Source: Fimbriimonadaceae bacterium
GTDB taxonomy: Bacteria; Armatimonadota; Fimbriimonadia; Fimbriimonadales; Fimbriimonadaceae
Length of the DNA: 44,831 nucleotides
NCBI GenBank assembly: GCA_020849075.1
Contig: JADLGZ010000018.1
Location: 1-44,831, forward strand
Direction of reading: 5' to 3'
The notes beneath the pieces were generated by a model. The model searched no databases and was not told the origin of the DNA. It worked only from the letters and a program-made list of their open reading frames with translations. A program made the position numbers and the translations under genes. Below are positions 2-42,757 of the stretch, piece after piece (the first letter of the stretch is position 1; the number at the start of each line of letters is the position of its first letter).

Positions 2-529
2 GACACGGGTGAATACAAGGGGTTATTCGCGGCGAATTGGAATATCTTTGGGTACGGTCTTGCGGTCGAAACCCCCGCAACGGTTTCTGGATCGCTGGTC
101 TTCGGGGACTACGTCGGCACCGGGGTAACCCGCCCTGTCACCTTTGAGTTCTATGACGGAGCCACGTTGATTGACTCCACAACCGTCAACGTGACCCCAA
201 ACGGCGGAACTCCAGTTGCATACAGCGTCCGCACGGATGCCCGCGGCCCCGCAATCACCGTCAAGGCTCGAGGTTCTCGATGGTTGAAGAAGGCGGTCGT
301 CGCCAATATTTCGGGGCCAGGCGTCTCCGGTGTTAGCATTACCATGACCAATGGCGACTGCGATGCTTCCACTGAAGTTGATGCGGCCGACATTGATCTG
401 GTCATCGCCAATTTTGGATTAATCTTCCCTGGGCCAGGCCCCGAGGATTCCGATATTGACGGATCGGGCGAAGTTGACGCTGCTGATATTGATATCGTCA
501 TTGCCAACTTCGGCAGCGTTGACGACTAA
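2..529 (+). CDS. 3' part of a secreted protein (5' end outside the window) ending in a beta-sandwich-like segment plus two dockerin-type Ca-binding repeats
   Basis: Frame 2 is open from nt 2 to TAA 527-529; the listed ORF 167..529 is only its tail. The C-terminus has two copies of [22 protein letters not shown], the same tail as the CDSs at 2844..4106 and 7822..9192. Confidence 0.7.
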
Positions 530-2661
530 GCGGGAAGGAGCACACCGTCAAGCACAATATCGTCTGGTGCTAGGCACTCTGTGTCTGTGCAGGCTTGGAA
601 CTGTACGGTCACCTGAAACTCCGTCAAAGACGTAGCGTTACTGCTGAACTCAATCTCCACAATCCCCGTGAACTGATCATCAGCTCCCTCCGGATAACGG
701 ACCTCCGGCTCAATCCCCTGGAAGCGAAGCTGAGTTGGGGTGAGCCAGCGCGCGGGAGGATCGTTTGTGTTAAGGTGCAGTCCTTCAGGAATGTTCAGGA
801 TAACCGCTCCTGTGCCCCTTACCTCTCGATCTCTAAGTACGGCCGTGACTTTGCCGAGTACCTTTTTTTCTGAACTCTCTAGAATCGGCCCGCTCACCGT
901 TTTGGAATGCTCCATCATCATGGCGACTCGCACCATACTTTCGGCAGCTTGGGGCATTTTTTGGGCGATCCCGACTACCGCCATGAGCGCTCGCTCGGCC
1001 ACTTCCCTCTCGCCATAAGCGAGACATGCTTCAATGGCGACCGCGTTAGGCGAGGGAACGGCTTGATCCATTACGGGCTTTGAACGACCAAAAAGGTCGT
1101 CGTGGCTCCCGTTCGTAAAATAGAAACCTCCCTTGACCCGGTCCTCAAACTCGGTGATCATGTGCTGGATCAGTTGCTTGCCAAACCCTTGGTAAGCGGG
1201 CTCACCTGTCGCTCTACCAAGCTCAATCGCCGCCAGCGCCATGTGTGCAACATCATCAAGGTAGGCTTCCCCGCTCGGCGTTCCATCCGTGACTTGATGG
1301 GGCAAGGCTCCATGAGTTTCAACATGCATCATCCAACGCCGCATTGCTGCTTCGGCAATCAGCAATTCATCGGCCGCAACTAACCCACGAATAACGGCAC
1401 CATTCCACGCGGCAATTGCCTTGTTGTCCAGTTGCGGGGCAGGTCTGGTTTGACGGGCCTCTAGCAAAGTTCGCAACTGCAGTCGAAACTCCTCCCGGCG
1501 ATCTTCTGCGAGGTAAAGCAGATTCAGGCCTGTCAATTGTTGGGTGGCTTCATCTAGGAAGTTGCCGTTCTCTTCGATGCCAAAAGCTTCGATGAATGCT
1601 GTAGCATCTTGACCAAGAGCTACCTTGATTTCATCCACCGACCATAGGTAGTAGAGCCCCTCTTCGCCCATGGTATCGGCGTCTTGAGCAGAGCAGAAGA
1701 GCCCTTCGGCGGTGACCATTTCTCGCTTTAGCCATTCAATGATGCCAATCGTAGTCTGCTCCAACAAGCCAGCTACAGGAGCATTCATTTCACCTGCTAG
1801 CTGGGCAGCTCTTGCGTAGACCTGAAGGAGGAGCCCATTGTCAATCAGCATCTTCTCAAAATGCGGAAGTCTCCACTCAGAATCCGTGCTATACCGATGG
1901 AACCCGCCGCCTATCTGGTCATGAATCCCACCCAGAGCCATTCGCTCCAAGGTCAAAAGCACCATTGACAGCGCTTCACTGGTCGCGTCAGGAGCAGTTG
2001 AGGCATAGTCAAGCAGGAACAGCAGAGCTGGCGCGGGAGGAAATTTGGGAGCTGGCCCGAAGCCACCATTCTCGCCGTCGAAATCTGCCCTTAAGGCATT
2101 GAAGCAGTCCGTAAACAGCGAGGGCTCAATCGTGCTGGTGAGGGAGCTCATCGTCCGCCCCAAAGCCTTGCCAATCGCTTCAGAGATCTGGTCTGCACTC
2201 TTCAGAACATCGGGCCGAGACCGACGCCAAAGGGTGGCGATTTGCGTGGCCAAAGTAGCGAAGCCAGGAACTTTGCCCCGATCCTGGCGGGGGAAAAAAG
2301 TACCCGCGAAAAATGGCTTACGATCGGGTGTCATGAAGATCGTCATGGGCCATCCCCCGCGTCCGGCAATCATTTGGACGGCGAGCATATAGGCTTCATC
2401 CACATCGGGACGCTCTTCCCGATCAACCTTGATACTTACGAAGTGTTCGTTCAAGAACTCGCCAATAGCGGGATCTTCAAACGTTTCATGAGCCATCACG
2501 TGGCACCAATGGCAAGAGCTGTAGCCGATGCTCAGAAAGATCGCCTTATCCTCAGCTTTAGCCTTAGCAAATGCCTCGACTCCCCACTCATACCAGTCCA
2601 CCGGGTTATCTTGATGTTGCCTTAAGTAGGGCGACATTGACTGGGCAAGACGGTTGGGCAT
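526..2661 (-). CDS. Thioredoxin-domain protein of the DUF255/YyaL (SSP411-like) family with an (alpha/alpha)6 epimerase-like body and a C-terminal Cys-pair extension
   Basis: N-terminus reads [18 protein letters not shown]...[15 protein letters not shown] (CxxC in a thioredoxin fold), typical of this family. Start set at MPNRL (ATG 2661) because the first 27 codons of the listed ORF ([10 protein letters not shown]...) are the antisense translation of the tRNA at 2716..2791. The tail carries ...[18 protein letters not shown]. Confidence 0.8.
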
Positions 2662-2843: not shown

Positions 2844-4106
2844 GTGCATGCCCGCGTAACTGCCCTTTGTGTTGGTTTATTGGGAGCTAGCTTCAGCCAC
2901 GCTATTATCCGTCGCGTAGATGTTCCCGATGCCCAGCACCAGGCTTTGGCCAACAATATTCCACTGGGGTGGATCCAATACCCTTCACCGAGCGCCGTAC
3001 CGACAAGCTGCGCTTTGATAGCCGACCAGTTCATTCTGTCTGCCGGTCACACATACTCCAGCACTCCGGGCGCGATTATCAAGCTGGGTGGTGAAACCTA
3101 TAATATCGTTGCGTGGGTCAAGAATCCGGCCTTCAACATTAATGACTTGACCGCCGGTCACGATTTCTCGGTTGCAAGGCTGGATCGGCGCGTTTTGAAC
3201 CAAACACCCCTTACCATTCGATCGGCCACGGTTCCTGTGCAAACCATCATCAAGTGCTTCGGCATGGGTACGACTGGGCTTGGCGATGGCACCGGATTTG
3301 TCGCCCCATGGAATCCGATTCCGAGTTCATGGCCACCCCGCGGAATGACAAACCGGGTTGATATTGATAGCTCCATACCCAATGTTATCTTGACGGACTT
3401 CGACAAACCAGATGGGACAACAAATACCCTTTCGGACATTGGTTCCAGTCCAGCCGCAACCGACCATGAAGGGCAATTGGCGGGTGGCGACAGCGGTGGG
3501 CCGGTTACCATGTTGGTCAATGGCCAGGAACAGATTGTAGGTGTCAACTCAGCGGTAGCCAATTTCAATAACAATGGAATCACAGGAGACTACGGGGATC
3601 TGTCCGTAGTCTCGAAGATATCCGTGGACTACACATGGGTCATGAGCAACGCTTGGCAGGCGGGCCGGGTAGCAGGAAAGATCCACTTGGGTGACTTTGT
3701 TGGCTCACCAATGTTGCGTACAGCAACCATCTCCCTTCGCAATCCCGGAAGCACAACCAACTTGGAGAGCTTTATTGTTCCTCTAGCGATCGATTCGGGT
3801 TTTTCATTTGTTACGGCCCGTCGAGGTTTGACCGACCTACACATTACGATTCCCGGGTTCTGCGCAAAGAATCTGACAAATGTTAACATCACCAACACAT
3901 CACCGGGTGATCTAAGCATCCTTCTTCCCAACGGCGATCCGGATCAGTCCCAGGAAGTTGATGCTGTGGATATTGACCTCGTCATCGCCCACTTTGGTCA
4001 ACCCACCACGGATGCAACTCAAGGTGACCTTGACGGCTCAGGCGAAGTGGACGCAACCGACATTGACATCACGATTGCCAATTTTGGGACGCTAGGCCAA
4101 CCTTAG
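2844..4106 (+). CDS. Secreted trypsin-like (S1 family) serine protease with the C-terminal beta-sandwich + double dockerin-type cassette
   Basis: GTG start followed by a signal-peptide-like N-terminus ([20 protein letters not shown]). Catalytic triad contexts LSAGHT (His), DFSVARL (Asp) and GGDSGGP (Ser). Tail has [15 protein letters not shown] and [15 protein letters not shown]. Confidence 0.8.
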
Positions 4107-4122: not shown

Positions 4123-7100
4123 CTAGAATCGAAGCTGGTAATCCAGCCGAAGCGTCCAGTTATCGCGCTTCACATTTGCGTCACGGAAATTAGCCCAGCT
4201 GACATTACCAGCACTGACGCTGAACAATTGATTTGGACCGGGGCGCTGGCTAAACTCAATCCCATAGCGATGCATGGTTCTGCGAACGCCATCTAGGTCG
4301 GTTTGCTCCAAGCCGTAACTGAGCCGCAAGGGGGATGGGTTCTGAGCGTTTAGGGTCAGATTGATGGATGCAATGCGCGACAGTTGATGCGTTTCGTCGT
4401 TGATCCGCTCTTCCCAAGATGCGCCGAAGAGTGTATTTGCCTTGTCGCTTCGTTGTTGGAGCCGGAACCCTTGAGTTCTTGTCGGCTGGACAATCGAGCC
4501 CAGCAACGCGTCGCCCCTCGCCTGTTCTGGATAGGTCTGCGTTTGGAAGGTCAAGTCATAGCCGGGGATGTAGCGTGCCGTAACCGCAACATTGCGAATC
4601 ATGTACGTCTTGTCCCAAGGTAACTGGCGTGACTTGAGCATTGCATCAAAGCTCAGCTTGCGCGATGGCTCATTCGGAGTTGAGAACCGAAATGCTCGAT
4701 CTACGGCGCGGCGACCTTCGCCGTCTACCTGCCCCGTGTAATCAAATCCGAGTGTCAGATCCCCGATACGTAGGCCCACAGAGCCAGTTTGGTTTTCGCG
4801 TTGCCAGCGACTGTAATCCTTGACGGTATCACTTCCAATTGAGAAACGGAAATCCCGAATGAAACCGAGTTGAATGGGCTTGCTTGTACCCAGCTTGAAG
4901 TTGCCAGTAGATCGGTCTCGCTCCGTGCCCCAAGCCTGTTGAGTATAGTTTGCCCCACCGAAGCTCAGTCCTCCAATAGTGCCACCGGTCAGACTCATAT
5001 TTGAATTCTGAGTATCGTTCAACCCCAGTTCTCGGGCAAACCCATAGGTGAACTTGATGCCACCGCCAAGATTGACCCAGAACCCATAGTTCCTCCGTTG
5101 TTCGTCGGGCCGATCGGCCTGCGTACGACTGATCTTCACCTCAGTAACGCTGACTCCGGTGCGTTCCGTGATGCCGGTACTGAGCGTGTGGGCGCTAACG
5201 GTCTCGCGATTACCATCGCTGTATTCCGTCCTAGTTTGCTCTGTGCGTATGTTGGTATTGGCCGCAACCTTCGCTTCGGCGGTTAATGAGTTACGAGTAC
5301 TATCGGGGGCCGTTGTCGAGGTGCCACCGTTCTCGATAACCTCGCGCTCAAACTGCACTGCGCCAAAGCCATTGAAATTCCTGGCAAGTAGCAATCGGTC
5401 CACAGACTGATCAAGTAGCGTCTGCGTCGGATCCGCCCATGAATTCGCATACCGGAACCACTGCAGTTTCGTGTCTTTATCAATATCCCACGTCAGCAGG
5501 GACTCAGCAATGGTGCGCTTTTCGTCCAAGAGGTCGTTCTGAGACTTCATGAGGTTCATCCTCACGTTAAGTCCGCGCATGAGCATCAGGTTGGCAAGGA
5601 GCTGACGTTGTTCTTGACCAATCATCTGGCCAAGCATCTCTCGCTCTGGATCCACCAAGCCCGAAACATTTAGGAAATTGGGATCAACCCCGCGCTCGAT
5701 GTACTGAACTTCCATGCGAGGGTCCTGCAGGCGGAAACTGCCACGATGGGCTGAGCTTCCCCCAATGCGGGCGGTCATTGAACTGGCCTCAAACGATCGC
5801 CCTGAGCCCCAACTGGTTGAGAAGCTTAGGTCTGTCTTGTTCAAGCCAGGCAAAATCCCGAGTCGCTCACGCTCAAAACCCATAAGAGAGTTAAGCTCCA
5901 CCAGATTTGCGCCCAACTCCTGGTGCCGGTAAGCAAACTTGGTGCTGCCCCAGTCCAAAGTTCCGGTTGTCAAACGACCCGAATCTTGGGTGCCAGAAAT
6001 GAGTAGATCCGAAATGCTCACCCCGATGCCCTTTCCGGGAGTGTAGTTCATACGGTGAGAAGTGCGTGTCAGGCCCGTAGACCGGGTGAACCATTGCCGA
6101 TCTTCGGGTCGTGCACTGAGGCCCGTAGGCTGATACATCATGGCGATACGAGCGATGTTCCCATTCTGCTCCGCTTCGCTCTGTTTGCTCGGGCCGTCAA
6201 AGCCATCATCGTTGCCAATGGTGTCCTGCTCGTAGCTCCAATTCGCTCCAGTTACCGTGATATTTTGGGTGGAGAAGCCCAGTCCCGAGCGATTCATCTC
6301 GCTTTGGCTGTACTTCAGCGTTAGCCCTTTGGTTCCCCAGCCGAGATCAAAAGCCGTCCGAGAGATTCCCCGTTCCTTGGCCAACTGACCTTTGTCCGAC
6401 TCTCGCAAGCCATCAAATTGGTCGAAAGACTGGTCTACCGATTGGCTTAGGTATCCAAGGGTTAGGGTGCCACTCTGCAGGCCAAACTTGGTGCGCTGAA
6501 CCCTGCCGCCACTACCTTCGCGGACGCTGAGATCGGACAGACTTAGCTTCGCGCTCTTTTGGTCTAGGTTAAAGCCGAAGTTCGTGGTCTGGAGGCCTCG
6601 CTCTTTCTCAAGCTGCTTCCGATCTGACTCGCGGAGGTCCTTGAAGCGATCGAATCCAGAGTCCACATTTCGTGAGCTGAAGTTCAGTGACCATCCGGCA
6701 CCAGCGACACCATAAGACTGACGAGTGATAGAATTACCCTTCTCGCCAACTGTCTGAAAATCCTGATTCAAGGTGAGGGTTCCCGCCTTGATGTCCTTCA
6801 TGCTCAAGCCGATCCGTTTGAGTCCACGCTCTTTGGATAGCGCCGTCACATCAGCTTCGCTGAAGCCGTTGTCGGTGAATGCGCTAAAACCGGTGAACTT
6901 ACGATCACTCGATTGGTAGCTCAGTGACACCTTGCCACCCAGGACATTGCCGCCGATTTCCTGTACGATGGCAGTCCCCGACTCTTGCGCGGGTTGATCA
7001 AGGCCATCGCTAGCTCCCATCAAGGACTGGGATTGCGTAGTCTTCCGGCTTGAATAGGCAAACATGCCATTCATGCGCATGGAGCGTCCAAGTCCAAAGT

Positions 7101-7578
7101 TGTTCTTTAGGCCGTACAAATCCGTTCGCATCACCGAACCATTTTCGCCTCGCTCGGCCATTCCTAGGCCCAAGACAATGTTGGACTGTCCGAGGCTTAG
7201 TTTCATCGTATTGAGGCTGCTTCCCACCTTTGCAGCTTGTTCTTGGTCGGGATCGTGGCGATACGTAACCCGAAGGGTCTGCCCTGGCTTAACGGCAATC
7301 CGCAGCATGAGCATCCCACTCGGATAGTCCATAACATACTCATCCGACTTGAGATCACGGCCTTCCAAGGTAATGGTCTCGCTTCCCTTCACCACACCAG
7401 CGAAGCGAAGAGGGACAGTCGGGGCACCATCAAGGCGAATAAAGTCAGCCGCGGATATCCCGCCCACAGCCGATGTCTTGGGCGTTTCGCCCACGGACGC
7501 AGAAGAACCCTGAGCGAAGCCGATCGTGGGCATCGCACAGACCAACAGAGCTATCCCAAGCAACCGTTTTCTCTGCAT
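4123..7578 (-). CDS. Large (1151 aa) predicted outer-membrane beta-barrel protein of unknown function
   Basis: Signal peptide MQRKRLLGIALLVCAMPTIGFAQG. Sequence is rich in alternating-polarity Gly/Ser/Thr/aromatic beta-strand patterns. C-terminal ...LRLDYQLRF ends in Phe, as in OMP sorting signals. Internal repeated modules are described in findings. Confidence 0.6.
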   Translation of the reverse strand: MQRKRLLGIALLVCAMPTIGFAQGSSASVGETPKTSAVGGISAADFIRLDGAPTVPLRFAGVVKGSETITLEGRDLKSDEYVMDYPSGMLMLRIAVKPGQTLRVTYRHDPDQEQAAKVGSSLNTMKLSLGQSNIVLGLGMAERGENGSVMRTDLYGLKNNFGLGRSMRMNGMFAYSSRKTTQSQSLMGASDGLDQPAQESGTAIVQEIGGNVLGGKVSLSYQSSDRKFTGFSAFTDNGFSEADVTALSKERGLKRIGLSMKDIKAGTLTLNQDFQTVGEKGNSITRQSYGVAGAGWSLNFSSRNVDSGFDRFKDLRESDRKQLEKERGLQTTNFGFNLDQKSAKLSLSDLSVREGSGGRVQRTKFGLQSGTLTLGYLSQSVDQSFDQFDGLRESDKGQLAKERGISRTAFDLGWGTKGLTLKYSQSEMNRSGLGFSTQNITVTGANWSYEQDTIGNDDGFDGPSKQSEAEQNGNIARIAMMYQPTGLSARPEDRQWFTRSTGLTRTSHRMNYTPGKGIGVSISDLLISGTQDSGRLTTGTLDWGSTKFAYRHQELGANLVELNSLMGFERERLGILPGLNKTDLSFSTSWGSGRSFEASSMTARIGGSSAHRGSFRLQDPRMEVQYIERGVDPNFLNVSGLVDPEREMLGQMIGQEQRQLLANLMLMRGLNVRMNLMKSQNDLLDEKRTIAESLLTWDIDKDTKLQWFRYANSWADPTQTLLDQSVDRLLLARNFNGFGAVQFEREVIENGGTSTTAPDSTRNSLTAEAKVAANTNIRTEQTRTEYSDGNRETVSAHTLSTGITERTGVSVTEVKISRTQADRPDEQRRNYGFWVNLGGGIKFTYGFARELGLNDTQNSNMSLTGGTIGGLSFGGANYTQQAWGTERDRSTGNFKLGTSKPIQLGFIRDFRFSIGSDTVKDYSRWQRENQTGSVGLRIGDLTLGFDYTGQVDGEGRRAVDRAFRFSTPNEPSRKLSFDAMLKSRQLPWDKTYMIRNVAVTARYIPGYDLTFQTQTYPEQARGDALLGSIVQPTRTQGFRLQQRSDKANTLFGASWEERINDETHQLSRIASINLTLNAQNPSPLRLSYGLEQTDLDGVRRTMHRYGIEFSQRPGPNQLFSVSAGNVSWANFRDANVKRDNWTLRLDYQLRF

Positions 7579-7821: not shown

Positions 7822-9192
7822 TTAGTCGTCTACGCCACCAAAGTTCGCGATGACAATGTCAATGTCCGCAGCATCAACCTCATCGGAGAGATCCACATCG
7901 CCGTTGTTAGGTCCGACTCCGGTGCCGCCAAAGTTGGCGATAACGAGGTCAATATCAGCGGCGTCAACCTCACCGGAGCTATCAGGGTCACCATTTTGCA
8001 TATTGACCTTGTGCTCAAAGACGCCGGTCTCGGTTAGTGTAATCGGAACGACGCGCTTCAACCAAGAGCCGCCATCAATGACGAGGTTATATTCGCCTCG
8101 AACGTCGGTCGGAAATCCAATGTTGATTTCGCCATTGGCGTTCATGTTTGCCGTGAACGTACTGACGGCGCTGTTGGTATTACCGTTGATCGGCACCAGT
8201 TCTAAGCTGAAGGCGACCGATTGGGCTGCCGTCTGATTAACAATATCTCCGAGGATCGGGAGGATCTGCATTGAGCCATTTGGGAAAGCTCTCACCTTGA
8301 TGTCATCAACCCAAACATCCTGAGATGCTGTTTCTAGGGTTGGATTGAGGATAATCGTGTTCAACTTCCTTTGGGTGCCGGTTAGGTTCGGGTTGATATC
8401 CCAAGCCCCGTACAGCACACTGTCAACATAGAACTCAACGCGCCGAACGTTGTAGACCGTCGTAAACTTGTGCCACCCATTTGATCGCCGGTAGTCATCT
8501 CCGACGCCGTAGAACATCCAGTTCGGTGCGGAGTTACCCCCAAGTTCCAACGTCGTCGTACCAGCCATGAAGCCTGCACCGGGAGCTACCGAAAAGATGC
8601 GGCCAGCATAGTGGTTAGCGATACTCTGCCCCGTAGGAGCGGTACCAAACCAAGCATTGCCAACGAATCCAGTCCCAAAGCTCGAGTTAACTCCATTCCA
8701 GAGGCCGTGAGCGATGATCTGATTAAGTCCGACGAATGGATCTACCCCGCCACTCTCTCGCAAAGCTACAAAGAAGCGTTGGTTGAAAATGCTGTCAGTT
8801 CCCGAGGTTGCGACACCCTCGCCGCCGATCTGGTCGTAGATGAAATGCGAGAAGACGACCGTCTCGTCAACAGTCTGCTGACGAGAGAAGAGGGCGCCCT
8901 TGCTGACCCGTGGGCTACGCAGTGGATCACCGGTGGGTGCTCCGCTTCTACCTTGAACCTTGACGGCATATAGGCCCTCAAATACATGCTCCGTAGTTGA
9001 GGCGGAAACGGTTACCGGGGTTAAGGCGGTGGCCGTGCCGCTAACGGTTGAGAATGGCCATGCCGCTAGGTCGTTCGATTCAAAGTTATCAGAGAAAAGG
9101 ACTTCCGGGGTGAGACTTGTTTGGCCAAAAGCGATGGATGCGGAGATACCTGACAGGACAAGGGCTGTCGTTAGTTTGGTCATGGGTTGCAT
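7822..9192 (-). CDS. Secreted protein with a concanavalin/LamG-like jelly-roll region and the C-terminal beta-sandwich + double dockerin-type cassette
   Basis: Start moved to ATG 9192 (MQPMTKLTTALVLSGISASIAFGQ signal peptide), which has GAGGA 7 nt upstream. FSDNFESNDLAAWPF...VEFYVDSVLYG...VWVDDIKV resembles lectin/glucanase-fold domains (weak, by eye). Tail has [15 protein letters not shown] and [19 protein letters not shown]. Confidence 0.65.
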   Translation of the reverse strand: MQPMTKLTTALVLSGISASIAFGQTSLTPEVLFSDNFESNDLAAWPFSTVSGTATALTPVTVSASTTEHVFEGLYAVKVQGRSGAPTGDPLRSPRVSKGALFSRQQTVDETVVFSHFIYDQIGGEGVATSGTDSIFNQRFFVALRESGGVDPFVGLNQIIAHGLWNGVNSSFGTGFVGNAWFGTAPTGQSIANHYAGRIFSVAPGAGFMAGTTTLELGGNSAPNWMFYGVGDDYRRSNGWHKFTTVYNVRRVEFYVDSVLYGAWDINPNLTGTQRKLNTIILNPTLETASQDVWVDDIKVRAFPNGSMQILPILGDIVNQTAAQSVAFSLELVPINGNTNSAVSTFTANMNANGEINIGFPTDVRGEYNLVIDGGSWLKRVVPITLTETGVFEHKVNMQNGDPDSSGEVDAADIDLVIANFGGTGVGPNNGDVDLSDEVDAADIDIVIANFGGVDD

Positions 9193-9307
9193 AGAATTTC
9201 CTCGTTGAAAGGTGCAACACGAAACTGCGTGTCGCACCTATAGGATACGACACTCAGGCTAAGAGTGGGCTACTGGGATCAGATAATCAGGGGGCCAACA
9301 ATTACAA

Positions 9308-33995: not shown

Positions 33996-35234
33996 CTATT
34001 CACCCAAGCTTTCCAACTGAGTAGCTTCAGCCTTAGGGATGTCGCTACTCCCGGCCAAGGTCGCTTCGGATTTCTTGTGCTCTGGCGGAGTCTCGAGGAT
34101 GCCCTTGAGTGTCATTAACCCAATCAACAGAATTGCCGCAAAGCCCGACATGATAATCCACTGTCTCTTGGCGGGATGGCGTGATTTGGACCGATCTAAC
34201 CAAGGTAAAGCAAACATGCCAATTGTGATCCCCGTGGGGATAATCACCGTTGCCACGACCTCCCAACCGCTTGGCATGACCTTCAGTAGCTCATATAGCC
34301 CGAGGAAGTACCATTCAGGGCGCGGGCTAAAATCAGTTCCCGTAGGGTCAGCAATCGCTTCTAGCCCTGGGGGCAATGCGACCGCAAGATAGATCAATAG
34401 CCCGACCCCAAAGAGCAGTACAATGGCGTCCTTGAAGAGTTGGTTGGGATAGAAAGGTACCGGGGCCCCTTTTGCGGGAGTTACCGGGCCGGCAATGTGA
34501 TGACGCCTCACCAGGTAGAGGTGGAGGAAAGTAAAGAGAATCAGGCTTGCCGGTAAAAGCATCACGTGGAAGGAATAGAAGCGGGTCAGGGTTAGGGCCC
34601 CCACCTCCTCTCCACCTCGAATGAAGACCAGCAGTGCATGTCCAACGACCGGTATGGTCGCGGCTATGCGGGTTCCAACAACGGTCGCCCAATATGCTTT
34701 TTGATCCCAAGGCAACAGATAACCCGTAAATGAGAAGCCAAGGATCACCTGAAAGATGATCACCCCAACAACCCAAGTCAACTCCCTAGGCTTCTTATAG
34801 GAGCCCCAGAAGAACACCCGGAGCATATGGAGGACCACGGCGATCACAATGACCGTTGAACCCCATGAATGTAGCCCTCGGATGAAGGAGCCTAAGCCAA
34901 CCTCATAGGTAAGGTGCTTTACGCTCGCATGAGCGGAATCTGGACTCGGCGAATAATACATCGCCAAGGCAAAGCCGGTGATGAACTGAAAGACCAAAAG
35001 GGTCATCAGCAGGTTGCCGAGTGTCTGCCACCACCCCACTCCCGCGGGCATTGGCTCGTCTAGGTTCTTCCGAACAAAACCGTACCAGCCGAGTCGCAAA
35101 TCCATCCAGTCGCGAAGCGATGGGCGCTCAATTTGGAGGCGTTCTTCAGACGAAACGGCCTCACGAGGCTCATCTACCTTGACCTCGGGACTGAGGGTTG
35201 GGGCATCCTTGGGTTTGTACGTTTTTTGGCTCAT
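33996..35234 (-). CDS. Cytochrome b (fused b6 + subunit IV-like) of a Rieske/cyt b complex
   Basis: WWQTLGNLLMTLLVFQFITGFALAMYYSP...SFIRGLHSWGSTVIVIAVVLHMLRVFFWGSYKKPRELTWVVGV carries the heme-ligating His pairs. A PEWYF motif lies in the C-terminal half. Confidence 0.85.
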   Translation of the reverse strand: MSQKTYKPKDAPTLSPEVKVDEPREAVSSEERLQIERPSLRDWMDLRLGWYGFVRKNLDEPMPAGVGWWQTLGNLLMTLLVFQFITGFALAMYYSPSPDSAHASVKHLTYEVGLGSFIRGLHSWGSTVIVIAVVLHMLRVFFWGSYKKPRELTWVVGVIIFQVILGFSFTGYLLPWDQKAYWATVVGTRIAATIPVVGHALLVFIRGGEEVGALTLTRFYSFHVMLLPASLILFTFLHLYLVRRHHIAGPVTPAKGAPVPFYPNQLFKDAIVLLFGVGLLIYLAVALPPGLEAIADPTGTDFSPRPEWYFLGLYELLKVMPSGWEVVATVIIPTGITIGMFALPWLDRSKSRHPAKRQWIIMSGFAAILLIGLMTLKGILETPPEHKKSEATLAGSSDIPKAEATQLESLGE

Positions 35235-35237
35235 TGT

Positions 35238-35732
35238 CTAGACCTCTCGAGAAATCCAAATCTTTCCTGCTTCGATCTTTACAGGGTGGCGCTCCAACGG
35301 CTTGGGCGGAGGCCCTGATTTGTTGGTGCCCTCATCGTCGAAAACGCCACCGTGGCAAGGGCATATAAACTTGTGCTGATCAGCGTGATAGTCCACGCGG
35401 CAGCCAAGGTGAGTGCAGGCTGGGTCAATACAGATCACATCCTCCTCACTCCGTCGCAAAAAGACCGTGAACTTCTGTTCTACTTCGTGATAGCCATCAA
35501 CGACGAGTAAGGAATAGTTCACTTCCTTCACTTCGCCGGGCTTGATGCGCGACTCGTCCATCAACTCAACCCAGCGAGACTTCCGCTTGTTACCAAGGGG
35601 GGCAGCCGCAAACCCGACCATGGGGCCAACGATGGCACCGATAAGGCCTAAGTTGATTACTCCAACAACGAGCCCCATCATCTTTCGGCGGGAGATTTCG
35701 ATATTGTCTTGGTTCAGATTATCTTTCGGCAT
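35238..35732 (-). CDS. Rieske [2Fe-2S] subunit
   Basis: CTHLGCRV...CPCHGGVFD motif, plus an N-terminal SRRKMMGLVVGV Tat-type signal anchor. Confidence 0.85.
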   Translation of the reverse strand: MPKDNLNQDNIEISRRKMMGLVVGVINLGLIGAIVGPMVGFAAAPLGNKRKSRWVELMDESRIKPGEVKEVNYSLLVVDGYHEVEQKFTVFLRRSEEDVICIDPACTHLGCRVDYHADQHKFICPCHGGVFDDEGTNKSGPPPKPLERHPVKIEAGKIWISREV

Positions 35733-35744
35733 GTTTCGTATTCC

Positions 35745-36872
35745 TTATGGGTAGTAGCGCATGGTTATCGGGCCATCTTCGCCAAGCTGTTTCATGACAT
35801 CGCTTGCGATCTTCATGGATTTGTGGTGCCGCCCTGGGGATGGCTCGCGCTCAAAGCCCAGCTCCACCCCGCTGGCAACGATGGCTTCGGTGAGTCGAGT
35901 CATTGCGGCAAGGGCTGGCACAACGTACATGTGCTGGAACCGAGTGAACGGCCCGGTGGCGATGAGGAGCGCGACCGCTGCCAGATGCCAGATGTAAATC
36001 GTCATCACAAAGTCGTGAATTCCCATTCGCTTAAGCGCGACCACGAGGAACCCGCTAATGATCACATGCACAAGAAGATTGACAAAGAGGAAATCCTTGC
36101 CGAGCGTTAGCCCGTTATCAATGAACTCATCCTTCTTGTAGCGGTACATCACATAGAAGATCCCTATCAAAACGGCAATCCCTGAAACGACCGGCAAGAG
36201 TTTTAGGGGATGCGTCAATGGCACCTGACCTCGCTGTGGATTCAAGATTGCGATCAGAATGTCAGCTAGCAGGAGGCCACAGAAACCATAGAGGAGTAGC
36301 CCGTGCATGAACCACCGCTTCTTATTGTTCTGCCAAAGAGATCCGACAAAGAAACCGTCTACGATGAGCGACTTCAGGACGACGCCAAAGGATCGCGCCC
36401 ATCCAAACTTCGCTATCGCAGGCTTTAGCTCCTTCAAGCCAGCACACTTCAGCCAGTAGCTGAGTCCTCGAATGGCAAAGACCGTGGCAAAGAGGAAGAC
36501 CACGATAAAGAAGTGGCTCACACTACGTGGCGTCAGAAATTGTCCGACCTTAAATGCAATCGGGATTTCGTCGGGAATCCACGGCTTTGCCTTAACTTCT
36601 TCGTAAACTTGGTCAAGATCTGTATCACTGAGGTCCGCTTCGCTGATGGCGGGCATCATCCCCTTACCATTTCTCACCACTTGCCGGAACGTAGATAGCC
36701 CGACCTTGGTCTGTGCCAATGGTGGCCCCAGGCCGCCCATTGCATTCTGGCCGTGACAGCCCATGCAAGACGTAACTGGATAGACTTCCTTCTTCTTGAG
36801 GTCAGTCTGGGCATAGCTACATGCTACGGCCAGCAAGAGCATGAAGATCGCGACTACTTTTGATAGTTTCAC
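35745..36872 (-). CDS. Fusion protein: periplasmic mono-heme class I cytochrome c domain + NarI-like (nitrate reductase gamma family) di-heme b membrane domain
   Basis: Signal peptide MKLSKVVAIFMLLLAVACSYA, CMGCH heme c site and GMMPA (candidate Met ligand). About 5 TM helices follow, with conserved His residues (FMHG, LVHVI, IWHLA) and GPFTRFQHMYVVP, which resembles the E. coli NarI C-terminal PFTRL(V/I)HIWSAPV. Confidence 0.7.
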   Translation of the reverse strand: MKLSKVVAIFMLLLAVACSYAQTDLKKKEVYPVTSCMGCHGQNAMGGLGPPLAQTKVGLSTFRQVVRNGKGMMPAISEADLSDTDLDQVYEEVKAKPWIPDEIPIAFKVGQFLTPRSVSHFFIVVFLFATVFAIRGLSYWLKCAGLKELKPAIAKFGWARSFGVVLKSLIVDGFFVGSLWQNNKKRWFMHGLLLYGFCGLLLADILIAILNPQRGQVPLTHPLKLLPVVSGIAVLIGIFYVMYRYKKDEFIDNGLTLGKDFLFVNLLVHVIISGFLVVALKRMGIHDFVMTIYIWHLAAVALLIATGPFTRFQHMYVVPALAAMTRLTEAIVASGVELGFEREPSPGRHHKSMKIASDVMKQLGEDGPITMRYYP

Positions 36873-37588
36873 TTTTGACCTCGCTGTGTTCTTTGGGCTT
36901 CTTCTTGCTTGGCATCTCCGATGCCATCCGACTGACCGAGGGTGCTCGGTCGTTGCTCGGCCATGGTTCCGAGATAGCAGCCGGCGGGTTTTGTCTCCGC
37001 CTCGGGAAGGAGGTGGAAGGGCGACCTGCCGGTCTGTTCCTTCTGCTCTTCAATGTAGGTCGAGACATCGCTTTCGGGGTCTTCTAAGTCACCGAAGATG
37101 CGAGCCGTTGTCGGGCATGCAACCACGCAAGCAGGCTGCAGCCCTTGGTCAACCCGGTGCGCGCAATAAGTACACTTGCGCGCTACATTCTCCTTCATGC
37201 GAAGCTTCACAAAGTCCTGTTCATAAGCCTCGTTCTCGTCGAGGTACCACCCTTCTTCCTCGCGGTGAAGGATGATGTTGCCGTAGGGACAAGCCGAGAC
37301 GCAGGCTCCGGTACCTCGACAACGATCCTGATCCACAAGAACGATTCCATCGGGCCGTCGGACAATGGCCTTATTCGGGCAGGATTTGAGGCACGGTGCA
37401 TCGTCGCAGTGGTTGCACAGGACCGGAATGTAGACCCGCTTCACGTCAGGATACGTTCCAGCCTCAACATTTAGGACACGAGCAAAGAAGGTGTCGTAGG
37501 GCGTTCCGTTCTCCTGCTTGCAAGCCAAGGTGCAGGCATCGCAACCAATGCACCGCGTCAGGTCAATGAGCATCGCGAGGCGTGCCAA
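36869..37588 (-). CDS. Iron-sulfur (beta) subunit of a type II DMSO-reductase-family enzyme (short NarH-like)
   Basis: Motifs CIGCDACTLACK, CNHCDDAPCLKSCP and CTYCAHRV...CVVACP. DGIVLVDQDRCRGTGACVSACPY lacks the second Cys (Thr in its place), as NarH has Trp in [23 protein letters not shown]; this predicts a [3Fe-4S] cluster. Confidence 0.8.
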   Translation of the reverse strand: MARLAMLIDLTRCIGCDACTLACKQENGTPYDTFFARVLNVEAGTYPDVKRVYIPVLCNHCDDAPCLKSCPNKAIVRRPDGIVLVDQDRCRGTGACVSACPYGNIILHREEEGWYLDENEAYEQDFVKLRMKENVARKCTYCAHRVDQGLQPACVVACPTTARIFGDLEDPESDVSTYIEEQKEQTGRSPFHLLPEAETKPAGCYLGTMAEQRPSTLGQSDGIGDAKQEEAQRTQRGQK

Positions 37589-37589
37589 C

Positions 37590-40031
37590 TTACTTCACCC
37601 TCCTAACGTCCACGCGAGTGTCCTTCCAGTGCTGCCCGGGCGCATACACCGCCGGGAGGTAATAAACCTCGTGGGTAGGTTTCACCTTTTGATACGTGTG
37701 CACGCTGTGGTACTTTCCAGCCCCGAGATAGCGATCCCACCAGCCATGATCCACACAAACCACACCTGGCTTGATGGCCTCAGTCACAAGGGCCCAGAGT
37801 TCGTAGCTTCCAAACTCATTGAAAACTTCCACCGCTTCCCCGTCTTTGATCCCCCTCATAGCCGCATCCTTGGGATTGATCTCAATGACCGGTTTTCTAT
37901 TGAGATTTCGAAGGAATGGGTTGTTGCAGTGGGTCGAGTGAACACGCCACTTTGAGTGAGGGGTGACGATTGCGAGCGGCATTTCTTGGGCGGATACCGG
38001 AAGGTGCTCAAACGCCCAGTGGTAGGTCGGGACGGTCTCGCCCATCTTCTGGTAGATCTCCTCTTCCTTGTAGAACTCCATACGTCCCGTCTTGAGGAAT
38101 TCCCGCTGGGCCCCTTCGGGGAAGGGGTAGGCACGCGGCGGGAAGAGCTTGTCTTCATGAAGTTGCTCGTCCAGCCCGCATTCGGGGTCGTGGACATTCA
38201 ATCGCACAGGACCCTTCTGCAACATTTCCAGCGTTATGCCTTCAACCTCTTTGCCTCCGCCCTTAAGCATGATTTCGATGGCGTCTTCCTCGGTGTAGTC
38301 CATCTGCTTGGCGAGTTCTGGATCGACTCGTTTTAGGAGTTCTTTCTGAACCCACATCTCCGTGCGGCTCTCGTATTGAGGTTTGACGACCTCCTGCTGG
38401 ATTTGCAGATAGGGATGGCAGCTGGTGCCCACCAAGTCCAATTTCTCCCAGAAGGTCGGAGCCGGCAAGACCACATCCGCGTACTCACAAGTCGGCGTCA
38501 TCGAGAAATCGGTAACCACGAACAGGTCCAGACGGTCAATGGCCTCCTTCATGGGGGCGCTAAACTCCGTGACCAATGGATTGGCGTGGCTCACAAAAAG
38601 GGCCTTGAAACCATCCTTCGGGAACTTGATCTTGGGGTTCATGGTCCCCGTGGGCTGACCGAGCACGAAGTAATGCATCGGCACGCCGTTCGGTCGCTTT
38701 CCATCCGGGAACCACCAAGGGGAGACATCGAGCCGGAAGTGGTGCTGCCCAGAATAGATCGAAACGCTCTCGCCCGGCTTACCATGAGCTCCGACAAGCG
38801 AGGCCAGCAGCAGGATGGCGCGAATCGTCAGGTCGCCGTGCAACCGGTGATTTACACCCATGCCGATGATAATTGAGCTGGGGCGCTCGGTGGCATATCG
38901 TATGGCGACCTGGCGGATGGTGTCGGCTGGAATGTCACAGGTCTTGGCGACATGTTCGGGCGCGTACTCGTCCCGCATGATCTCGTTCTCAAGGAGCTCA
39001 AAGACCGGAGTTACGCTGACCTTCGTGCCATCGCTCAGTTGAACCGTGCGCTGGCCTCGAAAAGCAAACTTGGCGTCCTCGGGCAGCTTCAGCGAATCCA
39101 TCGGAAGTTTGTAAAGAGCATCCTTCCCTTCGTCCCAGACCATGAACTCGGCCTCGGTCCCTTCGCCAACGTCACTGGCGCGGAGCCGCTCGCCCGTATC
39201 CTGCCGAATTAGGGTGCAAACGTCGCTGAACTTTTGCAAAAACGCCCAGTCCACATGGCCTTCCTTCAAGACAACCTGGCACATGGAGAGCGCAAGCGCC
39301 CCGTCCGTTCCCGGATTGACGGGGAGCCACAAATCCGCGCCCTTGGCGGTTTGGCTGGCACGGGGGTCAATCGAGATGATTTGGCAATTGTTTCGCTGCT
39401 TGGCGTGGGTCGTGAGAAACTTCGCGTCGGGGATTCGGGTTTGGAAGATGTTGCTTGACCAAAGAATGGCGGTCTTGCAATGAGCCCAACTTCGGGTCTC
39501 GCACTCCACGCAGTCAATACCTACGGTCTGGGTGAAACCCATCGAAATGTCGCCATTGAAGTCATAAGCCGTGGCGAAAGACATCCCGAGCAAGGCGGCG
39601 GCCCGGACTTGGGCGCCTTTCTGGACATATCCCGTGCCCACCACTTGATTAAAGAGGAGCATGGATTCGGGCCCGTGATCCTTGCTGATGCGCTTCATGT
39701 GGTCGGCGATGTAGTCCAAGACTTCATCCCATCCAACCTCCCGCCATTTGTTTTCCCCGCGCTCGCCGGCGCGGATCAAGGGCTTGTGCACGCGGTCCGG
39801 CCCATAAATAATGTGCGTCATGGACATCCCGCGCAGGCATCCGCGAGGGTTGTATTCCTGGCAGGGATAATCCGCCGCCGGCTTGAGGTCAACGATAACA
39901 TCGTCCACGACGGTGGCGAGCCAGCCGCAGGCTCCCGTGCAATTCGGACTATCGGTGGTGCGAACCACCCGCGCCTTTTCGTTAGGAGCGACCGTTGGTG
40001 CTCGACCCGGAACTTTATGTCTGGTTGCCAT
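37590..40031 (-). CDS. Molybdopterin catalytic (alpha) subunit, NarG-like type II DMSO-reductase family, compact (813 aa), no Tat signal
   Basis: DSPNCTGACGW...NPRGCLRG parallels NarG HGVNCTGSCSW...EPRGCPRG (FS0 cluster). AYDFNGD parallels NarG FYDWYCD (Asp Mo ligand region). LWSSNIFQTRIPDAKF parallels AWGSNVPQTRTPDAHF, and DLWLPVNPGTDGALALSM parallels DLWLAPKQGTDAAMALAM. The N-terminus MATRHKVPGRAPTV... has no RRxFLK motif. Confidence 0.8.
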   Translation of the reverse strand: MATRHKVPGRAPTVAPNEKARVVRTTDSPNCTGACGWLATVVDDVIVDLKPAADYPCQEYNPRGCLRGMSMTHIIYGPDRVHKPLIRAGERGENKWREVGWDEVLDYIADHMKRISKDHGPESMLLFNQVVGTGYVQKGAQVRAAALLGMSFATAYDFNGDISMGFTQTVGIDCVECETRSWAHCKTAILWSSNIFQTRIPDAKFLTTHAKQRNNCQIISIDPRASQTAKGADLWLPVNPGTDGALALSMCQVVLKEGHVDWAFLQKFSDVCTLIRQDTGERLRASDVGEGTEAEFMVWDEGKDALYKLPMDSLKLPEDAKFAFRGQRTVQLSDGTKVSVTPVFELLENEIMRDEYAPEHVAKTCDIPADTIRQVAIRYATERPSSIIIGMGVNHRLHGDLTIRAILLLASLVGAHGKPGESVSIYSGQHHFRLDVSPWWFPDGKRPNGVPMHYFVLGQPTGTMNPKIKFPKDGFKALFVSHANPLVTEFSAPMKEAIDRLDLFVVTDFSMTPTCEYADVVLPAPTFWEKLDLVGTSCHPYLQIQQEVVKPQYESRTEMWVQKELLKRVDPELAKQMDYTEEDAIEIMLKGGGKEVEGITLEMLQKGPVRLNVHDPECGLDEQLHEDKLFPPRAYPFPEGAQREFLKTGRMEFYKEEEIYQKMGETVPTYHWAFEHLPVSAQEMPLAIVTPHSKWRVHSTHCNNPFLRNLNRKPVIEINPKDAAMRGIKDGEAVEVFNEFGSYELWALVTEAIKPGVVCVDHGWWDRYLGAGKYHSVHTYQKVKPTHEVYYLPAVYAPGQHWKDTRVDVRRVK

Positions 40032-41854: not shown

Positions 41855-42757
41855 GTGGCACGCAATAGAGCTGGCTTTGGTGTTTGCGCTTTCATGGACT
41901 CTCTCGGATCATCCGAGCTGTACGTCGAGCTTTCTCAGCAAGGCTTGAAGGGTTATCAGAATCATCTCCGACTAATGACAGGTGAGAGAAAGGGGCTAAG
42001 ATATTACATTGAAGTCGCTCGTGATTCTTATCCTAGCGTCAAGGACATTTCCTTCCAGTTCTTCTCAGATTCAACCTTCCTCTACGCATTTGCGGGCGAC
42101 GAAAAGTCCTTTTCCTACGCGCACGCAGATGTAGTGATTGCGGCAGCCGAAGTCTGCGCACGATACCAAGTTCATCAGCTTGTAAATGGCCGGCTCCTTC
42201 GAGGTGGACTAGCACATGGTGAAATTGTTGCACAAACAAATGCATTGGTCGGTCTTCCAGTCTATCAAGCCGCCGCGATTGAGTCGAGTGCCAAACACCC
42301 CGCGATCGTGCTGGCAAAGCAGGCCGAGCTCTATGTACGTAGCTTGCTAATGTCGGACGACATCAACATCAACGACCAGGACCTCATCACTAAACAGAGG
42401 GCCAAGAGGTCGCACTTGTTTCTTTACCTTGCGGGAGGTCAAATGATCGTTAATCCTTTCGCGGTGTTGAGGCCAACTGCGGACGCTGAACCGGGCCTAC
42501 TTGAGGCTATCCTGAAGCATTGCCATGATTCGATCAAATGGCACCTACTCAAGTTCACGACCGACGAGCGACGTTATTCGAAGTATGCATTCATGCGCGA
42601 CCTCTTCAACTTTCACCTACTGCAGCACACGGAGTATCTGCGGTTCTATCTGGCGCTGCCCGGAAGTGAGACCGCCAGCCAATTCTTCGGCATCGAACAC
42701 TTTCTTGACGAAAATCTAGATCAGCTGGCTACGAAACCTCCTCGCCCTATCAAATAG
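41855..42757 (+). CDS. Hypothetical protein; N-terminal half resembles a class III nucleotidyl cyclase-type palm domain, C-terminal half helical and unassigned
   Basis: GTG start; the alternative ATG 41894 would remove the first motif. By-eye motifs: FGVCAFMDSLGSS (beta1, Asp15), ISFQFFSDSTFLYAF (Asp72) and LLRGGLAHGEIV...GLPVYQAAAIESSAKHPAIVL (Arg116; compare RiGihtG...G..vN.AsRles.a.pg.I.v). Visibly lower GC than neighbours: two 60-nt lines I counted gave 24/60 and 30/60 G+C, against 34/60 for one line in murJ. Confidence 0.5.
   Translation: MARNRAGFGVCAFMDSLGSSELYVELSQQGLKGYQNHLRLMTGERKGLRYYIEVARDSYPSVKDISFQFFSDSTFLYAFAGDEKSFSYAHADVVIAAAEVCARYQVHQLVNGRLLRGGLAHGEIVAQTNALVGLPVYQAAAIESSAKHPAIVLAKQAELYVRSLLMSDDININDQDLITKQRAKRSHLFLYLAGGQMIVNPFAVLRPTADAEPGLLEAILKHCHDSIKWHLLKFTTDERRYSKYAFMRDLFNFHLLQHTEYLRFYLALPGSETASQFFGIEHFLDENLDQLATKPPRPIK

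Follow-up and report, generated by a model that had tools for sequence, protein, structure and literature searches.

A 44,831-nucleotide contig from a Fimbriimonadaceae bacterium of the phylum Armatimonadota (JADLGZ010000018.1; the whole stretch is hereafter called the window) carries a gene in which a periplasmic class I cytochrome c is joined in frame to a five-helix membrane anchor related to the nitrate reductase subunit NarI. The gene lies in an operon on the minus strand whose order is molybdenum (Mo) subunit, iron-sulfur (FeS) subunit, fusion, Rieske protein and cytochrome b, and its products probably carry electrons from a quinol oxidase of the Rieske/cytochrome b type to a molybdoenzyme that faces inward and probably reduces nitrate. 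We propose, with a little less than even confidence, that the fusion is the membrane subunit of a five-protein respiratory module in which electrons would run from quinol through the Rieske protein, haem c, haems b and FeS clusters to Mo. An earlier interpretation of the same DNA made without database searches (the sequence-only reading) had singled out this gene; the observation itself is confirmed here, and the interpretation placed on it is partly supported. The fusion gene comprises the following features.

35745..36872, minus strand: whole gene (signal peptide, cytochrome c domain, anchor with five transmembrane (TM) helices for haem b, and cytoplasmic tail), a single open reading frame (ORF) of 375 amino acids (protein P0001)
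36804..36872, minus strand: signal peptide or signal anchor, residues 1-23 (VKLSKVVAIFMLLLAVACSYAQT), read from the sequence
36573..36803, minus strand: class I mono-haem cytochrome c domain, residues 24-100, from Pfam PF13442 and a fold match
36753-36767, minus strand: CxxCH motif (CMGCH, residues 36-40)
36654-36659, minus strand: axial Met72/73, in the GKGMMP motif (residues 69-74), with Pro74 following
35871..36530, minus strand: five-TM NarI-fold haem b domain, residues 115-334, from the AlphaFold2 (AF2) helices, the VIA structural search and hhalign
36303-36305, minus strand: candidate haem ligand H190, from position and conservation
35985-35987, minus strand: candidate haem ligand H296, from hhalign to NarI H187
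35931-35933, minus strand: candidate haem ligand H314, from hhalign to NarI H205
36066-36068, minus strand: clade-specific candidate haem ligand H269, from conservation in the close clade
35748..35870, minus strand: conserved cytoplasmic tail, residues 335-375 (E343-P-S-P-G-R-H-H-K351 ... R-Y-Y-P375), from invariant alignment columns

The source is a fragmented metagenome-assembled genome (MAG; 248 contigs, 78% complete), and a small cytochrome c gene and a NarI-like gene might have been joined in it by sequencing error, or the gene might be a decaying pseudogene. This view is refuted, and we give it practically no probability: the frame, as read from the sequence, has zero internal stops, it is continuous in at least 200 independent database proteins and in 52 genomes at 46-98% identity, and its key residues are invariant. 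The same continuity disposes of the concern, raised in the sequence-only reading, that a frameshift or stop had been overlooked between the N-terminal domain and the rest. A database search for the domain architecture, which that reading had suggested, returned at least 200 homologues of the same build, whose names are mostly Armatimonadota, Fimbriimonadaceae or Chthonomonadaceae. One of these carries the JGI annotation ‘nitrate reductase gamma subunit/cytochrome c553’, and a database protein 99% identical to the fusion is equally 375 amino acids long. The 52 fusion loci come from a scan of one genome per species and lie almost entirely in Armatimonadota MAGs, the closest (98% identity) being that of a Fimbriimonadaceae MAG. 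The fusion is translationally coupled to the upstream FeS gene, whose TGA stop shares a 4-nucleotide GTGA with the GTG start of the fusion, and the ATG of the Rieske gene follows the stop of the fusion by 12 nucleotides.

The N-terminal domain exhibits the characteristics of a class I cytochrome c, namely a CxxCH motif, a distal Met, a family score above the cut-off and an export signal. Residues 35-90 fit the Pfam model Cytochrome_CBB3 (PF13442) with E 1.2e-9 and 38.8 bits, where the cut-off is 27. Residues C36, C39, H40, M72 and M73 are invariant in all 40 locus sequences aligned, which chance could not explain, and the fold of this part resembles the cytochrome c subunit of p-cresol methylhydroxylase (TM-score 0.75, Z 7.7). 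The first TM helix begins at approximately residue 115 in the AF2 model, and therefore a domain of about 100 amino acids precedes the helices, in agreement with the signal peptide and CMGCH...MP domain originally described from the intact ORF. Placement of this mono-haem class I cytochrome c in the periplasm by the N-terminal signal sequence is strongly supported. In relatives that also carry a fused FeS subunit (for example P0053), the segment matching residues 1-23 is an internal TM helix. A Pfam scan of the operon proteins uncovered no further c-type cytochrome gene in the operon.

The AF2 model, built from a 55-sequence alignment and confident (pLDDT 89.3, pTM 0.76), consists of a small helical domain followed by long helices. 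Its TM helices span residues 115-143, 184-210, 222-247, 257-283 and 289-309, the last running on as 311-334, and short amphipathic helices lie between the first and second. When this model was compared exhaustively with known structures (VIA), the top match was Mycobacterium smegmatis EtfD (9ojn; Z 12.1, 226 residues aligned), followed by Escherichia coli NarI (1q16_C; Z 11.5, 185 of 224 residues). A family profile searched against the PDB reaches NarI (1Q16_C) with E 4e-4, and hhalign aligns the anchor with E. coli NarI at 92% probability across residues 226-327. Two other comparisons were less informative: a Foldseek search of the PDB gave nothing at E 0.001 or better, though NarI ranked first, and a single-sequence phmmer search of the PDB with P0001 gave no real match to the membrane part, its top rows being spurious designed beta-propellers. 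The five-helix anchor is placed with its N-terminus outside and its C-terminus inside, because the signal-less FeS domain of the fused forms stays in the cytoplasm and haem c is attached on the outside. These in-frame FeS::cytochrome c::anchor proteins are the strongest evidence for the topology, and Lys and Arg are enriched in the segments predicted to be cytoplasmic.

The sequence-only reading had called the anchor a NarI-type di-haem b protein and had named loss of the four b-haem His ligands as a refutation; the NarI fold stands, and three of the four ligands are kept. The score against Pfam PF02665 (Nitrate_red_gam) is 18.6 bits, which is under the gathering cut-off of 22.9, although some relatives do pass (P0125 at 28.4 bits; P0031 is listed with PF02665 in precomputed annotation). 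The membrane half fits the NCBIfam model QmoC better (2e-18), and TcuB and TmcC also match, but all three scores fall below the equivalog level (QmoC 67 bits against a cut-off of 300, TcuB 31 against 247 and TmcC 23 against 240). Judged by these sequence scores, the anchor is a relative rather than a member of the QmoC, TcuB or TmcC families.

Ligand conservation was read in alignments of 27, 40 and 55 sequences. Three His residues are invariant or almost invariant in them (in the largest, H190 in 55/55, H296 in 54/55 and H314 in 54/55), and hhalign pairs H296 with NarI H187 and H314 with NarI H205, the motif P-F-T-R-F-Q-H being common to both proteins. H190 lies at the cytoplasmic end of TM2, where NarI H56 is located. 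This equivalence is purely positional, since hhalign found no significant alignment for the N-terminal half (probability of 0.4% for TM1-TM2 against NarI residues 1-107). The position of NarI His66, ten residues beyond H190, is occupied by Leu200 in 40 of 40 sequences and by Leu in every relative. Thus, of the four ligands of NarI (H56 and H66 on TM2, H187 and H205 on TM5), three are kept: one on TM2, and two on TM5 that are 18 residues apart. In the HdrE/EMO branch of the NarI family, such a set of three His with the 18-residue TM5 spacing has been reported, the proximal haem having two His ligands and the distal site a single one (bioRxiv 10.64898/2026.08.18.745454). The three-His pattern, together with a QmoC match and failure at the NarI cut-off, therefore assigns the anchor to an HdrE/EMO/QmoC-like branch; by sequence it is a NarI fold and belongs to the NarI family in the wide sense, but is not a canonical four-His NarI. 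That the anchor carries this three-His set is strongly supported; H190 and H314 would serve a haem near the cytoplasm, and H296 a distal haem site near the periplasm. By analogy with the three-His branch, whose distal site can hold one haem, a stacked pair or none, ‘di-haem’ should be read as a candidate description of the anchor in the window.

The tail that follows the last helix probably serves as a dock for the FeS subunit, as judged from its sequence conservation. It is absent from relatives P0128 and P0133, neither of which is preceded by an FeS or Mo gene. The idea that the tail and Mo/FeS genes always occur together was considered and rejected, because P0141 lacks the RYYP tail yet adjoins Mo and FeS genes.

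Other NarI-like proteins were observed in the course of this work. The source MAG encodes a 661-amino-acid protein in which a NarI-like membrane domain at the N-terminus is fused to HdrD-like Cys-rich domains (L001, G000:C167:6867-10238, ORF 283-2268 on the minus strand), which from its sequence is a candidate ETF:quinone oxidoreductase of the EtfD/EMO type (ETF, electron-transfer flavoprotein), the same family that gives the best structural match of the anchor. A second contig of this MAG (L002, G000:C111:2745-5909) encodes a NarI-like protein of 364 amino acids (1162-2256, minus strand) divergent from a Rieske gene (39-548, plus strand) whose 169-amino-acid product carries the twin-arginine (Tat) signal SRREFFKF. 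A similar NarI-like gene for 350 amino acids (1287-2339) lies approximately 5 kb upstream of the operon in L050.

The four partner genes of the fusion are as follows.

37590..40031, minus strand: catalytic subunit with a Mo-bis(pyranopterin guanine dinucleotide) cofactor (Mo-bisPGD), 813 amino acids, type II dimethyl sulfoxide (DMSO) reductase family, from PDB and profile matches
36869..37588, minus strand: FeS subunit, 239 amino acids, four Cys groups, NarH/DmsB/ArrB-like, from Pfam Fer4_11 (3e-24) and NCBIfam ArrB and TtrB-like models
35238..35732, minus strand: Rieske 2Fe-2S protein, 164 amino acids, from Pfam Rieske (1.7e-11)
33996..35234, minus strand: long cytochrome b, 412 amino acids, b6 and subunit IV fused, from Pfam Cytochrome_B (4e-53)

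The operon therefore brings together NarG/NarH-type Mo and FeS genes with genes for a Rieske protein and cytochrome b. The best solved relative of the Mo subunit is perchlorate reductase PcrA (4ydd; 3e-103, 350 bits), with NarG scoring lower, and its Asp161 aligns with the Mo ligand Asp170 of PcrA. No twin-arginine motif is evident at its N-terminus, upstream of which a stop codon is located, and without a Tat signal the active site should face the cytoplasm. This agrees with the cytoplasm-facing Nar-type enzyme named in the sequence-only reading. In the FS0 motif of this subunit, T-D-S-P-N-C-T-G-A-C (residues 22-31; 39939-39968), an Asp replaces the His of PcrA and NarG (H-x3-C-x3-C). The Rieske protein has an RR-containing N-terminal anchor and both cluster boxes (CTHLGC and CPCHGG), and the Qo motif of the cytochrome b, P306-E-W-Y309, is invariant. 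This is the sole cytochrome b detected in the 78% complete source MAG. The MAG also has a single A-type haem-copper oxidase and a cluster of the alternative complex III (ACIII) type, which adjoins genes for the synthesis of haem A. The ACIII-like cluster (L076, G000:C175:1-10233) encodes a multihaem cytochrome c of 249 amino acids, an ActB-like Mo-binding/FeS protein of 1020 amino acids and an NrfD-like subunit, directly beside a fused CtaA-CtaB gene (COX15 plus UbiA, 672 amino acids).

On the basis of this gene content, the following route can be envisaged. The co-encoded Rieske/cytochrome b pair would oxidise menaquinol at its Qo site, and the Rieske cluster would reduce the fused haem c, which would stand in for cytochrome c1. 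Electrons would then pass inward across the membrane via the b haems to four FeS clusters and on to the Mo site, where an oxyanion, most probably nitrate, would be reduced in the cytoplasm. A Q cycle would in this way be stacked on Nar-type transmembrane transfer, giving about two charges per electron and not one. The earlier suggestion of haem c as a connection between the anchor and periplasmic carriers agrees with this context, the likely carrier being the Rieske/cytochrome b pair. It is possible, though we hold this with somewhat less confidence than the route itself, that the five proteins form one supercomplex in which the fused subunit is both ‘cytochrome c1’ and ‘NarI’ and every electron passes through the Q cycle before moving inward. 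A predicted complex of fusion residues 24-375 with the cytochrome b scored ipSAE 0.57, against 0.00 for the best of three controls, with at least 72% of contacts agreeing between runs and a partner pLDDT of at least 76; the tool grades this result as ‘weak support’. Of 80 solved complexes, 58 attained the mark used for such predictions, as did 2 of 110 mismatched pairs, but only 7 of those 80 scored 0.60 or lower.

The gene order is strongly conserved and recurs in about 50 Armatimonadota genomes at the species level. Wherever the contig permits, Mo, FeS, fusion, Rieske and cytochrome b genes follow one another on a single strand, and in all main-clade loci whose contig continues downstream the Rieske gene is next, followed by cytochrome b except in L012, where the contig stops after the Rieske gene. 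Two genomes have a non-adjacent Mo gene, 12-27 kb away yet present. In 23 of the 52 loci, the FeS subunit and the cytochrome c::anchor share one continuous reading frame. In a sample of 301 genomes of the phylum, the fusion is present in 13 (4 of 31 in its own family), and all 13 have a cytochrome b gene approximately 1 kb downstream, while 24 of the 31 family genomes lack any cytochrome b at E 1e-30. This distribution, together with the separate ACIII of the source MAG, leads us to conclude that the Rieske/cytochrome b pair travels with an accessory module and is not a general complex III. For the same reasons (13 of 301 genomes, and an ACIII in the same MAG) we rejected the idea that the module is the housekeeping complex III of Armatimonadota. 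A search with the membrane domain by itself gave only 173 cluster representatives among 1.84 billion proteins.

The operon was also seen in MAGs binned as Methanoregulaceae, Solibacteraceae and Acidobacteria (L018, JADZEW010000018.1; L052; L054). Because their genes share 51-58% identity with those of Armatimonadota, these look mis-binned or recently transferred. Feature-based look-ups gave hints, with scores under 0.8 and to be taken as leads, of fusions of cytochrome c with NarI in Bacteroidota and of cytochrome c with b561 in Chloroflexota.

More distant relatives reveal how the parts are combined. Those with several cytochrome c domains (three, or at least five; P0128 and P0131) have no Mo or FeS gene and are followed by Rieske and cytochrome b genes, P0128 also being one of those without the RYYP tail. 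Cytochrome-c-less relatives (P0130 and P0141) have adjacent Mo and FeS genes, and neither Rieske nor cytochrome b. A divergent clade (L057 and P0125) has the cytochrome c fusion with no Rieske/cytochrome b adjacent, so that the cytochrome c domain and this pair are not strictly linked. In L057, from a divergent Armatimonadota MAG, one frame of 1116 amino acids (L057:5724-9074) runs from the C-terminal two-thirds of the Mo subunit through the FeS subunit and cytochrome c to the anchor. Upstream of it is a separate 207-amino-acid ORF, which could reflect a frameshift or a genuine triple fusion. The frame is followed by a gene for an anion channel of the SLAC1/TehA type (L057:9087-10202) in place of Rieske/cytochrome b.

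These relatives bear on a different account of the operon, wherein the anchor, like NarI, oxidises menaquinol at a distal site of its own and supplies the Mo enzyme, haem c is a periplasmic port through which electrons leave or enter (exchanging with nitrite, nitric oxide or nitrous oxide reductases, soluble cytochromes or an oxidase), and the Rieske/cytochrome b pair is merely a co-expressed anaerobic complex III. The cytochrome-c-less proteins imply that the anchor can use the quinone pool, the divergent clade manages with the fusion and no adjacent Rieske/cytochrome b, and the distal haem site of SaEMO, a protein of the three-His branch, has been found to bind quinone (bioRxiv 10.64898/2026.08.18.745454). 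There is also a precedent in Thermus NarCGHI: NarI there binds a di-haem cytochrome c in the periplasm, which under repression of complex III has been proposed to divert electrons to enzymes of the later denitrification steps (PMC7694296). Nevertheless, the NarI quinol-site ligand His66 is absent from the anchor, the Rieske/cytochrome b order is invariant in every main-clade locus with a visible downstream region, and cytochrome b tracks the module within a family whose genomes mostly lack a cytochrome b, which is tighter than usual co-regulation. Moreover, the source MAG already has an ACIII for transfer from quinol to cytochrome c. We consider such a side branch less likely than the proposed route, to which it is the main rival.

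Neighbouring genes bear on the substrate. In 24 of 52 loci, NarK-family nitrate/nitrite transporters, often paired, lie no more than 8 kb from the operon (family score of 308.7 bits against a cut-off of 311.7), Crp/Fnr-type regulators occur at the same distance in 18 loci and MobA in 8, and genes for Mo cofactor biosynthesis adjoin the operon in L005. These neighbours point to nitrate reduction under low oxygen, which would make nitrate the most probable substrate. In eight loci (flanks, L012-L061), a gene for an outer-membrane porin of the Alginate_exp family lies next to the NarK-type transporters, and this protein could be an oxyanion porin.

Electrons could in principle flow in the opposite direction. 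The Mo enzyme would then oxidise a cytoplasmic substrate such as nitrite, as in nitrite oxidoreductase (NXR) of the Nitrobacter type, and electrons would leave via the b haems and haem c to a cytochrome c oxidase, with the Rieske/cytochrome b pair serving reverse electron flow. A cytoplasm-facing active site, the A-type haem-copper oxidase of the source MAG and NarK-type transporters, which would serve either direction, are all compatible with this, as is the origin of relatives in nitrogen-cycling reactors, judged by names such as AMX-MBFR. Nitrobacter NXR clusters also resemble Thermus narCGHI and include a NarC-like cytochrome c (PMC7694296). However, the Crp/Fnr-type regulators near 18 loci suggest anoxic induction, cultured Armatimonadota have been described as aerobic heterotrophs (PMC7509429), and the Mo subunit is far from solved NxrA (7b04, 105 bits) compared with its 350 bits against PcrA. 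An NXR-like direction is accordingly the less likely one, and we judge it improbable.

Several observations weigh against the proposed route from quinol through the Rieske protein and haem c to Mo. Haem content, electron direction and substrate are all inferred from sequence. The His66 ligand of NarI is missing (Leu200), and the candidate for a second distal ligand, H269 on TM4, is present in 34 of 40 sequences, with W, Q, N or L in the others, and is lost in distant relatives. In SaEMO the distal site holds a stacked haem pair (bioRxiv 10.64898/2026.08.18.745454), but in M. smegmatis EtfD, the closest solved structure, the distal haem is absent (PMC13083937), and without a distal haem the path from haem c to haem b would be too long. 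Transfer from a Rieske or c-type centre to the b haems also opposes the membrane potential, so favourable redox potentials would be required. The cytochrome-c-less relatives are presumably quinol-fed, and hence the anchor may keep a quinol site and make the Rieske route needless; the divergent clade typified by L057 and P0125 has no Rieske/cytochrome b pair beside its cytochrome c fusion. The predicted complex between fusion and cytochrome b supports binding only weakly. Finally, neither NarK nor NarJ was found in the source MAG (78% complete), and the Mo subunit resembles PcrA more closely than NarG, so that nitrate can be no more than the probable substrate.

Comparison with known systems places these features in context. 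E. coli NarI (1Q16 chain C) likewise has five TM helices with the N-terminus outside and the C-terminus inside, serves as anchor for a Mo/FeS enzyme that faces the cytoplasm and belongs to the type II DMSO reductase family, and has the TM5 pattern H-x17-H followed by a P-F-(S/T)-R-x-x-H kink. The window protein differs in having Leu200 for His66, a score under the Pfam NarI cut-off, an extra haem c domain and a long conserved tail. The partner subunits of NarI have 1247 and 512 amino acids, whereas those in the window are much shorter (813 and 239), and the NarJ of the NarI system has, as mentioned, no counterpart found in the source MAG.

Anchors of the HdrE/EMO (EtfD)/QmoC group (9OJN; SaEMO) provide the best structural match (Z 12.1), the best curated match (QmoC, 2e-18) and the three-His pattern. 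They differ in docking HdrD-like CCG or FeS domains and in reacting with quinones. We know of no report of a protein of this group with a fused cytochrome c, or with a Mo enzyme or Rieske/cytochrome b neighbour.

In the cytoplasm-facing nitrate reductase NarCGHI of Thermus thermophilus, NarI is accompanied in stoichiometric amounts by a c-type cytochrome in the periplasm, which gives it a port for electrons on that side (PMC7694296). However, Thermus NarC is a separate, membrane-bound di-haem protein, Thermus NarI is canonical, and the operon includes narJ and has no Rieske or cytochrome b genes. Furthermore, NarC is thought to replace complex III, and not to work with one.

The pNarGH enzyme of haloarchaea is reportedly co-encoded with NarB (Rieske) and NarC (cytochrome b), and Martinez-Espinosa et al. 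in 2007 are said to have proposed that a Q cycle feeds it. It therefore shares with the window a nitrate reductase of the type II DMSO reductase family that is co-encoded with a Rieske/cytochrome b pair. The haloarchaeal enzyme is exported by Tat and faces outward, and therefore needs no transmembrane b-haem anchor; it has no cytochrome c::NarI fusion. Cytochromes c1, f and QcrC resemble the fusion in being c-type proteins encoded in a Rieske/cytochrome b operon, with a periplasmic haem domain and a membrane anchor. Their anchor is a single helix, whereas that of the window protein is a five-helix, haem-binding bundle predicted to carry electrons inward, and its haem c domain is class I by the Cytochrome_CBB3 match. 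For the parts of the module there are thus precedents in NarI, NarC, haloarchaeal pNar with NarBC, and HdrE/EMO anchors. What appears to be undescribed is their combination: a covalent cytochrome c::anchor, often with the FeS subunit fused on, that is linked with a Rieske/cytochrome b pair and with a compact Mo enzyme lacking a Tat signal. A search of the literature for this architecture found no description of the module, and MAG Ch118, in which the operon is present (L049), has simply been listed as narG-positive (PMC7509429).

Elsewhere in the window, four ORFs were without a Pfam match: 41855-42757 on the plus strand (300 amino acids; at E 0.01) and, at E 1e-5, 2844-4106 on the plus strand (420 amino acids), 4123-7578 on the minus strand (1151 amino acids) and 7822-9237 on the minus strand (471 amino acids).

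Membrane-bound nitrate reductases are textbook redox loops that move a single charge for each electron. In aerobic and photosynthetic chains, it is Rieske/cytochrome b complexes that run the Q cycle. The gene described here would join the two in a single fused subunit, to which the FeS protein is also fused in 23 of 52 loci. If the five proteins do form a supercomplex, the yield would be approximately four charges per two electrons, double that of NarGHI, which would represent an undescribed coupling of anaerobic respiration. The module thus offers a testable model for higher-yield anaerobic respiration, and it indicates that a three-His anchor of the HdrE/EMO type can serve molybdoenzymes. 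For Armatimonadota it is an accessory trait, and related MAGs include those from anammox-type reactors (AMX-MBFR). If the narG call in Ch118 corresponds to the Mo gene of this operon, then the energy yield, and perhaps the direction, assigned to such organisms in models of the nitrogen cycle would need to be revisited.

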